Shown: positions 33,501 through 39,500, counted from the first letter of the stretch. The stretch: 64,000 nt of DNA from Hydractinia symbiolongicarpus (GCF_029227915.1 NC_079887.1:16224214-16288213), one strand, 5' to 3'. Made by a program: numbers and translations. Notes: generated by a model not told the origin, from the sequence alone.

Positions 33501-36500
33501 ATGGTGTTGAAAGATGAAGTAGAAGATACTGCTGAAGAAAGTAATAAAGAAGAAGTAAACAAAGAGCAGAAAATGGAAAATAACAAATATGAAGAGGTAG
33601 GTTCTTAACTTTTATATTTGTTATCTTTTATGTTTGTGTTGTTGTTGTTGTTGTTTTTTCTTTGTAATCTAAAAGGTATAGTTTTACTCAAGTTGCAAGC
33701 ATTTATGTTACAACAGGCTGTCTGTCAAACCCTAAAAACGGTGAAATCAGACCAGGCGACCTTTAAAAACCTTGAAATCAGACTAGGTGACCTTGAAAAC
33801 CTTAAAATCAAACCAGGTGACTAATGTTTGTAAAAAAACCTTAAAAATCTTAAAATATGAATACTTAACAATTTCTATCTGGTCATGAAACATTGATTCA
33901 TAATAACATATTGATTTTACACTTTTCAAATAATAACTTTGAACACTGCCATGTTGGAGTATTTTTCCCCTTATTGCATACCTAGTTATTTTTTTGTGTA
34001 CTTTAAACATAGAAATATCACAGACATTATAGTAAAAAAAACTTCAACAAAGGATCACTTTTTTCTGCTCACTGTTCAGGTGCTTTCAAAAGCAGAGGAA
34101 GAAGAAGATGTGAAAGCTGCACAAACTGCAAAAGCTGAACAAGAATCTGAACTTCTGGAGTTCAACGAAAATGTACCTTATGCTGAAGTATGTCAATTTT
34201 TACTGATGTGTTAGTAAAGAGTATCATGATGCAATATATTACTAAAAGACTAAATATTTTTGCTAAAAAACTGTTTCTTTTACCTTAGGCTGGAAAAAAA
34301 GAAGAGTCCAAGGTTGAAAAGGCTCTTGCAACGCTAGAATCAGAGGTGGCCTATTCTCAGAATTTTTAACTACAGATATTGTAGCCTTAAAAATACAAAA
34401 AGCTGTCAAGTTAGGTGTGCCCTAATGAAATAAATAGTACAGAAACTGCATTTGTTTTTTTTAGTTAAAACCTATTGAACTGTTTGCACTGCGGTTTATG
34501 GAAAGTACCAACACCTTCTTGGTAGAAGACGAAGTGGAAGAGGCTGCGAAAATGCTTCAACAGAAAAAGAAAGACTGGGAACTTGACCATTTACAATCTC
34601 TAAAAGAAGCAGAGGAGCGCAAAAATGCAGAAGAAGAAGACGACATGTTCTTTACGTATGTCCGTGATGAAACTTATGCCAAGGTGAATGATAAAACAAA
34701 GGGTTCAAGAACTATATCTAAATCTAATAAATCCAACTATACAGACTTGCATGTTGAGGTTCTTAGCAGCCCCAAGGAACCTGAAAGTAACTGCACTTCA
34801 CCACAATTTCAATTAAGATTACAGCCATTGATTTTAAAATTAGGCGATGATAAGATAGCCCAAATAAAAAAGACTGCTAGGGAAGCAATTGATGCTAAAA
34901 ATACAGCTCCAGTTAACAGTAGAGTTAAAAAAATTACTCTTAAGCAGCCTGTAAAAACAGCTGCAAGTATGAAGAACTTAAATGAGAAAAAAACTTTGCC
35001 AAGTACTAAAAATACTGTTGGTAAAACAATAACAACTAGGAAAAGTGGAAAATCCACTGCTCCCATACACCTGACTGAAAAGGATGCTTCTGTAGAATCT
35101 GAAACAAGAAGCATAGCCACCACTCAGAAATTAGCTGCAACATCTCCCACTGATCATTTGCCTCTGCCATCCCGAACACGCAATAACAATGCTGTTACGC
35201 TAAAGGATTTTATGTCGACTCTACCGAGGGACACCTCGTCACAACTCCGACCCTTGGCAAATAAAAGAATAAATTCTGTCACCGAAAATAAACTCTCTAA
35301 TGTGGAAAACCGTCCACAGCTTAAACCTTTGACAAACATTTCCTCGGCAGCTTCTAGTCCTATTGCTTCTCCTGGAAGTAGTGATGGAAGCAGTGATGTT
35401 CGTCGAAGCTCACGCACACCACGTCCAAAATTTGTAGAAGATGATTGGTTTTTGTTCAGTTAAATAGAATAATATCTTTGTGCAATACATATTTATACAA
35501 AATAGGATAATTGTTTTTTATCCGTTTAAATTATGTCTCAAAATTTTTATACCAATAATACAAGCTATCAAAAAAGTTTTAAATTGTGTTGTTTTGTGTA
35601 TTGGATGGCAAGAGGTAGCTTTTCGTTAAAAACAGTGCATCGTTGTTTCATTTGTGATTTTTTTTTCATTGAAGGGAGCGTTACAACTATATTCTTTATA
35701 CCATTACCTTTTGCCATACCAAGATTAACAACACAATGAAGACATTGCACTGTATGACTAGAAGCTGCCTGTTGACAATAGAAATCCCGAGAGTTTGATT
35801 TTGAAGAAAGACATGAACTGTTAATTCTTTCTTCAGAGTTGCTTTCAAATATCCCTTGGGTCAAAAGATTTAATTTGTGTCGCTATATCTAAGAAACTTA
35901 CACCCTTCCTAATTGTTTCACCTGCTACTGGCTGGTAGTGGTACCTCTCTGTTTATTTTTTAAGTCTGGCATTCAAAAACGAGGTGTAAACAACAGTCTC
36001 TGATAAGAAAAGTGAGAAGCATAAGTAGGGTCTACCTAGAATTGAACCAACCTACCTAAATTGTGGAGACAAGATTTTTCTACGAGATCTTCACATTTTT
36101 TTATTTTATTTTGTGGCAGTTGGGTCCTAGGAAACATATAAAGGTGTATGTGCATATGCATCATAAAGCAAGTGAGTAAAAAGTGTTAACATTTCAAAAT
36201 CTATTCATCAATCCAATCGTTTGTAAACAGTGAGCAGAAAATAAATTTACAAGAAGGAAGGCCAATAAGATTTTTTTTAAAAAAATAAATTAGTCAGTTG
36301 TTGAAAGTGAATTTGGAATATTTTTCTTTACTAAGGTCGTTTTTTCAGGCGAAGGAAAGTTTATCTTCTGGTTTGCGTGTCACCTAAAGAGTAGATGCAA
36401 CATTAAATTGATGAAAAGTAAATTGAGGCTATTCTACATTACGTTTTGGAATTTAAATAACAGACTTAGGATCTTAGATTATTTGACTAAAACCAAACTC

Positions 36501-39500
36501 TTAAGTTCTAAGTGTACTAACGTGTCAGCATGACTCTTTTTCCATATATTTCCTCACTTCGTGGGACGTAGATTATTCTGTAATTCCGGCATGTTGAAAT
36601 GTGCTACTAGCCCATTCTAAACGCTAGTATGAAACCTACTTATGTACAAAAGATTGTTGAGTTTTTGCCTCTTTGAAAAATACACCAAAAACTGTTTTGA
36701 ATATTGGTGTGTAATTGTTCAAAGTTTTTTGATCTCGTAAATCTTTCATTTTTTAATCATTTTTTTATGAAAATCTGGGCCCCTTTGCTTTGATTGGTTA
36801 GAATTAGGAGGTGGCCAGTTAGTTTTTCTTGTTTATTGTTGTTGTTGATATTCTGATTCCAACTAACGAGGAAGAGAAAGATGCACTAGAATTGGACTAA
36901 AAAGCATATATACATTGCAAAAAGGTAGGACATGCTAACCAGAATATCAACTTCAGATTTAAAATATTGCAAGCCAATACTTATAACACTTGCATTTTTT
37001 TTTCACTCTATTTTAGCATTTTGTAGATGAGTATACTGGTGTCTTTATGCCGGTGAGTTTTTTTTTATAGTGAATGTGGTTTGCAATTTGGTAAACATTT
37101 TTGTGAACAGTCGATATACTTCACCTTCCTTCTGTACTATGACTAAGCTGTTTTTAAAGCTGTCTTTAAAAGAAATTACTACTAGATGAATCAGACTGGA
37201 CATGGTGTCTGTCAGGACAGGGGAAGATAAGAAAATTTCAAAAATCAGAAAAAGTTAGTGAAATTTCTAGGGAATCAAGAGGAAAACTTATAGCACAGAA
37301 ATGAACAGGCAAATCAATTTTGTAAATGTTGAGTTCAGTGAAGATAGTTTAGTTGGTTGCAAGCTGGAAAAAAGCATCAATGGTATCAGAAAAATCTAAT
37401 CCTAAAATTCTGGCAGACAAAATGTGGGAGTGAAAGACTTAACTCTAATAAAGGTTGCAATTTCTGCATTTTTCTTCATGCTAGATATGGACACCTCCAA
37501 CACCACCAAGAGATGGTGAAACAGACTATGTTACTGATCACTGCTTAGCATTTTTGTATGAAACAGGAACTATACCTGAAAACCATTTGCCTCCCACTCA
37601 TTACCTAAAGTAAGTCATCGCACAGTTTTAAAATTAAATATGGTAGATTAATTAAAACTTGTAATTTTTTTGAGTTAAAATGGTAACTGCAGTTGTGACA
37701 CACACAAAATGCGGTAAATAAAGGACAGGTGGAATTTATCCAAGGACCACCTAGTTTCTAAATATTTCTTAATAAGCGTAAAGGTTGAGTGTGCTCTGTG
37801 TGGTTAATTGTATCTAAGCTCATGTAAGCCAATGTATTAAAAATCATACCGTGAAAAGACTTTGGTTTTATTCAAAACCTGATTACAATCGTGATTTGAG
37901 GTTCCAGTACGTCTAATTAATATATTGTGTGTATTGTTATACAGGAAAGGTGGAATGGATTTATATGCGATGAAGCGGAACACAAACCGAACACACTATT
38001 TAAGTGTTTTTAAAAAAAAAAGGTAGGTCTTATGCTACAGGTAAAGATAGGTCTTATGCTATCAATTTAACTTCCTGATTAAACGATACAAGTTGGAGTT
38101 TTCTCCTTGTATATTTAAAGGCCCACATCCAGGCTACCTATTTTTTTACAGTTCTATGGTATTTACAGGGTCGTGTTACCTTTGAAATTGTTACAACACA
38201 TTTCCAAAATAGTAGCCGTCATCTGTCTGTCTCTATCCAAAATTGTACCGCAGTAGCAAGTCACCTGAAATGCGGTATTTAAAGGCTGGACGTAGTGGTG
38301 GATTATCCACGGGCCACCGACTAGTTATTTATATTGTGTCTGAAAAAATAAGTAGAAAAAACGAGTCGAAATATATCTGCTGAACTCTGGTTTTTAGGTA
38401 ATACTAACATGGACATTTATTCATCAGGATATAGAATTAAAAAAATTAAATTTTCAAACCAAGGACACCATGTAATATTATATCATGGACCAAATATTAC
38501 TAAACATTTATTCTTGTTTATTTTTGAAAAGGGGTATTTTTATTTCGTGGAACAGTAGTATTGGTAGTATACTTTTTATATAGACATCGTTTATCCAAAT
38601 TCAAATCGATTTTTGATAAGAAGGCACTAGAGTTGCTGAACAAGAACAAGTTGAAGAAAAGTCAGAAGCTAAAACAAAAAGCAATGACAGTACCAATTGT
38701 TCCATCTTCAGTCACGACCAGACCAGATTACTCGCAGGTAAGTCACTTGTTGCATAAACTTAACAATTTGAATATATGTTTTCACCACACTGTTATTGTA
38801 TTCTGATGCATTAAAGAAAAGGTCATGACTATCACTTTACTTAGCAGATTTACGATAAAAGTATATATTAAGCTGAATGTCATCGCTTAAAATTCTTTTT
38901 GTTGCAGCAAGGACCTGATTGGTTAATCAATGAAGACTGGGCACTACTACAGGTTTGTCTACATCTAAGGACTAGTGCTTGCCTTTATCGTGTAAGGTGA
39001 TGTGAATCACAAACAACTATGTCGGACCGCCAACACCATGGTATTTTCTGTGTATTATTGATTTTTAATGATGACAGGGTGTCATACGTGGAAAACCTTA
39101 AAATCATAGCAGGTTACCTTGAAAACCTTAAACTATAAATTTTTCCAAAAAAATAAAATGCGTAGTTATAAAACATTGCCTTGTATTGTTTAAATGTTGA
39201 GCACATGACCTTATTGTGTATTTTCTTCTGTCTTCGTGCTTTGGAACCTTAAAATGTTGCCAACCATTAAGAATACCCTAAAATACTGATAAAAACCTTA
39301 AAAATCTAGAAATTTCTACAAGAAAGTTTGTTAACAATGTGATTTGTGTTTAGGCTGTCAATACCATGTCTGAGTTACCGTTGGATTTCCAGAACGAACC
39401 AGTTCACAGCAAACTAGCAAACTGGGATTTAGCTGCAGATATTGTGAACAGTATGAGCAGAGTTCGCAGATCAGCTAGACAGGTTAGACATTAACTGGAC

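Follow-up and report, generated by a model that had tools for sequence, protein, structure and literature searches.

Can one gene for a chromatin remodeller of a cnidarian end in two ways, with the same exon serving as the last exon of a short messenger and as an internal exon of a long one? The question is raised by a stretch of 64,000 nucleotides (nt) from Hydractinia symbiolongicarpus (NC_079887.1:16224214-16288213), AT-rich eukaryotic DNA with a GC content of about 0.33, which carries a Domino-type gene of the SWR1 family; this whole stretch is called the window, and positions are counted from its first letter. A first-pass annotation had proposed that one exon of the gene either is read through to a stop codon at 35463, or is left at an internal donor and joined directly to an exon at 37485 that leads to SANT and poly-Q sequences. 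The principle of two 3' ends has held up, with a conserved tail, a conserved donor and both transcripts found in a related hydrozoan, but the proposed junction has not. A gene with a two-fate composite exon in Hydractinia is, in our judgement, very probably the best overall explanation of the evidence.

The exon in question consists of the following parts:

34465-34683, plus strand: 5' part of the composite exon, common to both isoforms, with the acceptor ttttag immediately before 34465.
34684-34689, plus strand: internal 5' splice site AAG/GTGAAT (34681-34689; the slash marks the exon border), in phase 0, forming the codons Val-Asn in the short isoform.
34684-35460, plus strand: read-through coding tail of 259 amino acids (aa), rich in S, T, K and R, recognised by its open frame and by homologous open reading frames (ORFs).

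Frame 0 is open from 34465 for 332 codons, up to the TAA at 35461-35463. The stop codon is thus where it had been placed; the count of 321 codons given for the whole exon is obtained only from the first ATG of the frame, at 34498. With a stop-codon density of 0.060-0.064, the probability of 259 open codons past the donor is about 1e-7, and none of 20,000 shuffles kept the tail frame open, which argues that the frame is real and not a product of chance; the other two frames contain 19 and 35 stops. The common part corresponds by alignment to residues 2159-2231 of human EP400, and its comparison with the orthologous locus of a congener (L004) gave 1.8% substitutions and a ratio of nonsynonymous to synonymous substitution rates (dN/dS) of 0.07.

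The tail itself has homologues. In metagenome and Logan assemblies, seventeen ORFs extend over it with 36-51% identity, calculated over the full 332-aa query and so with the 73-aa common part included, and one more does so with 96%. When 1.84 billion representatives were searched exhaustively with a profile, just 10 members came back, all with the tail motifs, and the tail is therefore regarded as limited to a narrow clade. At 50% identity these relatives form 10 clusters, among which conservation reaches the stop codon. Besides a shared motif AVTL.DFIS, two motifs could be placed:

34822-34902, plus strand: motif QPL.LKLGD.KIA.IKKTA.E.I.AKN, with P48, K52, I61, K62, A65, E67, I69 and A71 invariant in the tail-only alignment A2.
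35401-35463, plus strand: C-terminal motif SSAASSP...(D/E)DW..(F) followed by TAA, with RRSSR.PRPK...W invariant.

In every hydrozoan homologue the ORF ends 2-5 residues past the tryptophan of the C-terminal motif, and the stop codon is identical in the congener. Over the 777 nt of the tail, the two species differ by 2.8% substitutions and no insertions or deletions (indels), against about 5.5% and frequent indels in the introns. The dN/dS was 0.35 for the coding frame, against about 1.0 when either of the other frames was read, and the dS of 0.058 is near the divergence of the introns. Judged by this pattern of substitution, the tail is conserved coding sequence under purifying selection.

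AlphaFold2 predicted the tail to be mostly disordered (mean predicted local distance difference test, pLDDT, 53), with a single confident helix at tail residues 55-73 (pLDDT 83-91), over the first motif. Repeats are present in the tail of the orthologue at L001 10001-11293 (protein P0008): a unit of about 16 residues, NASTKTNLVNNTNSQP, recurs about six times in tandem, and a segment, PKKLPVKLAVQDTAKLTVQ.SNKQT.ISEANAVNSNPTSNTLTSPR, is duplicated; the stretch between the conserved motifs thus appears to tolerate repeat expansion.

The internal donor was the second element to be examined. An in-phase GTGAAT donor had been reported inside the exon at 34683/34684, and this is confirmed: AAG/GTGAAT is found there in phase 0, and the AG/GT of the homologous donor is invariant in all six hydrozoan lineages compared (AAG/GTGAAT, AAG/GTGATT, CAG/GTGAAC, AAG/GTTAAT). 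Given the AT-biased codon usage of each lineage, the joint probability of finding NAG followed by GTG at this place in five lineages is about 9e-7, a value that is approximate only, the five lineages being akin to one another. A G at position +5 occurs in 0 of the six-lineage homologous donors, versus 10 of the 12 donors mapped along this gene, a pattern that fits a conserved sub-optimal donor. On these codon comparisons the internal donor is functional and constrained at synonymous sites. Just upstream lie two small phase-0 exons, 34080-34187 and 34289-34345; in a transcript described below (L021), the composite exon follows their counterparts without an intron.

Beyond the donor, the long isoform continues with the following features:

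37017-37052, plus strand: microexon of 36 nt (12 codons), the first long-specific exon, ttttag/CATTTTGTAGATGAGTATACTGGTGTCTTTATGCCG/gtgagt, phase 0 at both ends.
37485-37609, plus strand: WTPPTPP exon, acceptor gctag, opening with IWTPPTPP and ending in phase 2 before gtaagt.
37945-38022 and 38584-38737, plus strand: long-isoform exons, the latter ending ...RPDYSQ, placed by tblastx conservation with L001 and L002 and colinear with L010 and EP400.
38908-38952, 39354-39482 and 39556-39603, plus strand: SANT exons, corresponding to the human EP400 SANT domain (about 2360-2433) and kept in L001 and L002.
39828-39911, 40062-40204 and Q-rich sequence from about 40568, plus strand: remaining long exons, from the colinear tblastn of L010, with borders placed up to 40204.
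44975-44977, plus strand: stop codon of the long isoform, at the end of the Q-rich ORF.

Donor and 37485 acceptor are both in phase 0, as the earlier arithmetic had it, but the junction 34683^37485 derived from it is not the one supported here, for the microexon intervenes; the real junctions of the long form are 34683^37017 and 37052^37485. So the donor foreseen for the long form is the one found, and what differs is the junction. Nor does EP400 homology resume at 37485, as had been stated: in the alignment with human EP400 it resumes at the microexon. There, the human sequence ...TYTREDAYSMEYVYEDVDGQTEVMPLWTPPTPP aligns with the end of the common part, the microexon and IWTPPTPP in succession; the microexon itself is aligned to human EYVYEDVDGQTEVMP (...AYSMEYVYEDVDGQTEVMPLWTPPTPP).

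The chain 34465-34683, 37017-37052, 37485-37609 and so on to 40062-40204 and onward is open throughout with the microexon included. Its match to human EP400 2159-2439 is colinear over 281 residues, SANT included (E = 5.5e-48), and the Pfam Myb/SANT matches on the SANT exons are weak, under the curated cut-off. Q-rich ORFs span about 42969-44977 and are colinear with the long transcript L010, which gave colinear tblastn exons on the window up to 44965.

Skipping of the microexon, by direct joining of 34683 to 37485, whether in the predominant form or in a regulated, in-frame variant, has to be considered here: with donor, microexon and 37485 acceptor all in phase 0, skipping preserves the frame, and microexons are often alternative. 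Conservation points the other way. The microexon is identical at 36 of 36 positions in the congener, flanked by introns that differ by 4-5% and contain many indels, and the distant orthologues L001, L002 and L003 have 12-codon exons in its place (HFIDEYSGVLMP, HFIDDFSGVLMP and KYIDERFGMLMP); length and canonical AG/GT sites are kept in five loci. It also matches conserved EP400 residues and the small exon of vertebrate-like EP400 loci, and the sole orthologous long transcript at hand, L010, includes its counterpart, DYIDDYTGVMMP. We consider direct joining improbable, and the long isoform is described below with the microexon.

Transcripts provided the third line of evidence. Scanning contigs of the Joint Genome Institute (JGI) for WTPPTPP, together with the look-up of one tail fragment, yielded L010 and L021, which are of the same species as the genomic contig L020. 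L010 (4248 nt) is intron-less: a single ORF runs through ...FFTYIRDETSNK, DYIDDYTGVMMP and IWSPPTPP to SANT, poly-Q and the stop codon, with a 3' untranslated region (UTR) behind it. In L021 (1316 nt) the upstream introns are gone, with the junction between ...GTCTCTGAG and TTAAGACC exactly at the genomic AG acceptor of L020, and the sequence continues past the donor (...DETSNKVNNSKSK...) to DDDWLLFS and the stop. Over their 129 shared nt the two have 97.7% identity; they run together as far as ...TCAAATAAG, and then split exactly at the donor. From these structures it follows that both isoforms exist as RNA in a hydrozoan, that the donor is used and that the microexon is included.

The sequence behind the short stop was searched for a polyadenylation site, which we infer to lie after 35463. 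A single candidate is put forward, at low confidence:

35554-35601, plus strand: candidate poly(A) region, with AATAAT/AATACA at 35554-35562 and then the GU-rich run TTGTGTTGTTTTGTGTAT at 35584-35601.

ATTAAA in L001 and AATAAA in L002 occur at a matching offset from the stop (+96 and +105), both with a GU-rich run behind them; the arrangement is absent from L003. Canonical poly(A) signals were dropped as evidence, being uninformative in a window where AATAAA is expected by chance about 1.6 times per kilobase. The view of the GU-rich run as a conserved downstream element was likewise weakened, as L003 has the conserved blocks listed next but no nearby hexamer, and another distance from the stop.

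Immediately downstream lies a conserved non-coding element:

35602-35770, plus strand: conserved non-coding stem in the short 3' region, which is intron in the long form; its blocks are common to L001, L002 and L003.
35602-35623, plus strand: conserved block 1 of the stem, TGGATGGCAAGAGGTAGCTTTT.
35633-35639, plus strand: conserved block CAGTGCA.
35711-35721, plus strand: conserved block TTGCCATACCA.
35746-35752, plus strand: conserved block TGCACTG.
35756-35770, plus strand: conserved block GACTAGAAGCTGCCT.

The counterparts are at L001 11428-11584, L002 11732-11889 and L003 11527-11729, three loci that share the blocks though their tails are just 30-38% identical to that of the window in the tail-only alignment. 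Between the window and the congener, 35464-35763 is 0.7% diverged, below both the coding tail (2.8%) and the introns (about 5.5%); over 35464-35925, some 460 nt past the TAA, divergence is about 1%, and conservation drops beyond about 35930. Complementarity covers 11 bp between AGGUAGCUUUU and UAGAAGCUGCCU and 6-7 bp between CAGUGCA and UGCACUG, and RNAalifold pairs the blocks. The window stem has a minimum free energy of -49.1 kcal/mol (z = -3.8). One U-G pair of the stem is U-A in L003; as nearly all pairs are invariant, covariation neither supports nor refutes the stem. A pseudoknot could arise from a third block, TTGCCAT, whose sequence complements the 5' half of block 1.

The window has one copy of the element; no counterpart was detected in the further hydrozoan lineages L007 and L020, and a comparison with Rfam gave no match at the gathering threshold nor at E<=1. 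Two roles are conceivable for the stem, as an element in the 3' UTR of the short mRNA or as an intronic switch between the isoforms.

So conserved a stretch behind a stop codon could in principle also hold a promoter, as would be needed if the remodeller ended at 35463 and the SANT and poly-Q exons were a separate, Eaf1-like gene. Such a fission of the gene is the remotest of the alternatives considered. L010 has one ORF that spans the common exon, the microexon and all that follows as far as the stop after poly-Q; the microexon begins in phase 0 without start context, the match to EP400 runs across the junction without a break, and synonymous sites of the donor are under constraint. Both 3' ends are thus best assigned to one gene.

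Several points weigh against the two-fate composite exon in Hydractinia. The transcript evidence comes from the species of L020 and not from Hydractinia itself, L010 and L021 are deemed RNA-derived solely from the absence of introns, and homologue searches for Domino isoforms gave only proteins under about 530 aa. L021 ends 1 nt past the stop, so that it has no 3' UTR or poly(A) tail, and incomplete splicing or a retained intron could in principle explain such an RNA. At about position 793 (919 of L020) it has one T fewer, GTACAACC-AAAGTT, which breaks the tail frame and makes the gene caller cut the tail into two ORFs; this 1-nt deletion is probably an assembly error, because the frame downstream of it remains open and conserved. 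The tail showed no Pfam or PDB match and no likeness to the C-terminus of SRCAP. Within 776 nt past the stop there is no AATAAA or ATTAAA, the first AATAAA standing at +777 (36240-36245). To these is added the kinship of the five lineages in the donor codon test.

These observations bear most directly on the possibility that the read-through is intron retention or pre-mRNA, perhaps targeted by nonsense-mediated decay or regulatory, with a tail that has no functional product. The truncated end and frame-breaking deletion of L021 would fit it, as would a poly(A) site that is a candidate only and a tail that is mostly predicted disorder with no known domain. Set against this, at least 259 codons are open across divergent lineages (the 10 clusters at 50% identity), the C-terminal motif stands right before a conserved stop, and purifying selection is specific to the coding frame, with zero indels. 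Simple retention is on balance quite unlikely, even less likely than skipping of the microexon, and a translated short isoform is preferred. On this comparative evidence, both isoforms are likely to be made in Hydractinia in the way described.

How the two ends would be produced can be outlined as follows. In the long form, the donor at 34683/34684 would be used, and the transcript would proceed through the microexon 37017-37052 to the WTPPTPP exon at 37485, SANT, poly-Q and the stop at 44977. In the short form the donor would stay unused, adding 259 more codons of a hydrozoan-specific, mostly disordered tail up to the TAA at 35463; this RNA would presumably be cleaved and polyadenylated within what is otherwise intron. 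The weak internal donor would thus compete with read-through and intronic 3'-end formation. The short isoform would keep HSA and ATPase, and would lose everything from the FV.E..G..MP-WTPPTPP segment onward.

Composite terminal exons in which splicing competes with polyadenylation are known from the secreted/membrane switch of immunoglobulin mu. The arrangement described here is alike in having a weak 5' splice site inside an exon, the use of which removes the read-through tail together with the intronic poly(A) site; if the donor is left unused, a shorter protein with a distinct C-terminus results, the poly(A) site of the present locus being a candidate only.

What kind of remodeller is shortened or lengthened in this way was judged from the remainder of the gene, with the following exons upstream:

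20543-21592, plus strand: HSA/EP400_N exon (PF07529 HSA, E = 8e-12; PF15790 EP400_N, E = 1e-8).
32812-33006, plus strand: Helicase_C exon, from a domain match of the ORF.

Taken by its domains, the gene is a Domino-type SWR1-family remodeller: split ATPase, HSA, and SANT with Q-rich sequence are all present in the window. The ATPase N-lobe, from exons 27748-30703, scored 580 bits with human SRCAP (E = 7.6e-174), 444 with yeast Swr1 and 337 with EP400, while the post-ATPase region matches EP400 only. From these scores, the HSA/EP400_N exon and the EP400-only region, the protein is viewed as a Domino-type hybrid, with a SRCAP-like motor and EP400-like termini. Human EP400, the TIP60 scaffold (PDB 8qr1, 8xvg, 9cae), is accordingly similar in the colinear long form (2159-2439, with WTPPTPP and SANT) and in the N-terminal EP400_N and HSA matches, and dissimilar in the ATPase, which in Hydractinia is much nearer SRCAP. 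SRCAP and Swr1, the best N-lobe matches, resemble the short isoform, which likewise has no SANT/TRRAP-binding module; unlike it, SRCAP is a separate gene in vertebrates, and its C-terminus has no similarity to the Hydractinia tail.

A closer parallel is offered by Drosophila, where DOM-A, with SANT and poly-Q, acts in a NuA4-like complex and DOM-B in a SWR1-like complex (PMC7239659). There too, one SWR1-type gene gives two proteins that have HSA and ATPase in common and whose C-terminal ends are different, the long one with SANT and Q-rich sequence and the short one with a tail of no recognisable fold; translation of DOM-B ends in exon 11, upstream of the exons of DOM-A (exon 14) (PMC7239659), as the short stop lies upstream of the long-form exons here. 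The fly branch point is at residue 2008, and the likeness is one of architecture. The parallel with dom-B and dom-A drawn in the first-pass annotation is sound in this architectural sense; the name dom is nevertheless an analogy and not an arthropod orthologue label, because the organism is a cnidarian, namely a colonial hydrozoan. Unlike the fly gene, the present one belongs to a host outside the arthropods, and the hydrozoan tail has no detected relatives beyond its narrow clade. Alternative C-termini were noted in bee, wasp, ant, beetle and spider annotations by Scacchetti et al. (2020), who proposed that this mode may be widespread in Arthropoda (PMC7239659). A search of the literature on cnidarian Domino, EP400 or SRCAP found nothing relevant.

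As to function, human EP400 contacts TRRAP through residues 2312-2321, 2366-2433, 2443-2475 and 2494-2523, and its C-terminal domain anchors the HSA module (bioRxiv 10.1101/2024.07.30.605802). The long-specific part of the Hydractinia protein corresponds to these TRRAP-contact and HSA-anchoring regions; on this ground, and by analogy with DOM-B and DOM-A of the fly, we infer that the short form would serve SWR1/SRCAP-like H2A.Z exchange and the long form would be a NuA4/TIP60-like scaffold.

The exon structure at the branch point can be followed outside the cnidarians. In two vertebrate-like EP400 loci from JGI metagenomes (L014 2383-2905 and L015 2408-2930), the WTPPTPP exon is 76% identical to the human one, and a phase-0 intron stands at the same place, ...TYTREDAYNK/gtaatt, followed by the small exon EYVYEGPDGQTEIMP. 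Sharing of this intron and small exon indicates that the exon structure is older than the cnidarian-bilaterian split. A frame read on beyond the homologous donor meets a stop after 4 codons in both loci, which leaves no short tail there.

Some further loci (L009 2261-2860, L016 7-360, P0018 and P0019; GC 0.38-0.40) represent a more distant lineage, with the donors CAG/GTTAAA and CAG/GTGCCT and with S/R/K-rich read-through ORFs of 82-158 codons after the homologous donor. Comparison of these ORFs with the hydrozoan tail gave an hhalign probability of 0.3%, and the tblastn match was compositional only. The end of the L016 ORF, ...RRTKFPDDI and stop, recalls the hydrozoan ...RPKFVEDDW, a resemblance without support from hhalign. 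Microexon and WTPPTPP exon are fused in L016; in L012 about 865 nt lie between them.

The remainder of the window contains other genes and mobile elements. No tRNAs were found in it.

1732-4699, minus strand: remnant of a long interspersed nuclear element upstream of the gene, with an endonuclease/reverse transcriptase-type ORF (Exo_endo_phos, E = 9e-12).
12506-14107, minus strand: hAT-family transposase ORF of 533 aa, upstream of the gene (Dimer_Tnp_hAT, E = 2e-10).
46551-47123, plus strand: dual-specificity phosphatase downstream of the gene, apparently single-exon; its ORF (46551-47120) exactly matches the RefSeq protein XP_057295473.1 of H. symbiolongicarpus, RNA/RNP complex-1-interacting phosphatase-like.
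56270-59391, plus strand: exons of a glycosylphosphatidylinositol (GPI) ethanolamine-phosphate transferase, with Phosphodiest and PIGO_PIGG domains.

The orthologous gene in L002 has piggyBac-type ORFs (PF13843, PF13842) inside an intron.

In yeast and vertebrates, H2A.Z exchange (Swr1, SRCAP) and the acetyltransferase scaffold (Eaf1, EP400) are assigned to separate genes. The principle of a switch of the DOM-A/DOM-B type is already established in flies; here it is seen in a phylum outside Bilateria, and the cnidarian architecture together with both hydrozoan transcripts pushes the one-gene strategy beyond that group. Two possibilities follow: the strategy may be ancestral, in which case vertebrate SRCAP and EP400 would be duplicates that subfunctionalised, or convergence may have produced it. 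A fuller version of the first can be formulated, in which the split between SWR1 and NuA4 functions by alternative 3'-end processing would be ancestral to eumetazoans; the decision point would be the phase-0 intron after ...TY.R(D/E)..Y.K, in cnidarians and vertebrate EP400; vertebrate SRCAP and EP400 would be the duplicated, subfunctionalised heirs of the two isoforms; and the hydrozoan RNA stem, possibly a pseudoknot, would set the choice between splicing and polyadenylation. That all of these hold together is rather doubtful. For the gene itself, models should take in the 36-nt microexon; and as Hydractinia is genetically tractable, isoform-specific tagging or knock-out is feasible in an animal that would make both forms of the remodeller from one gene.

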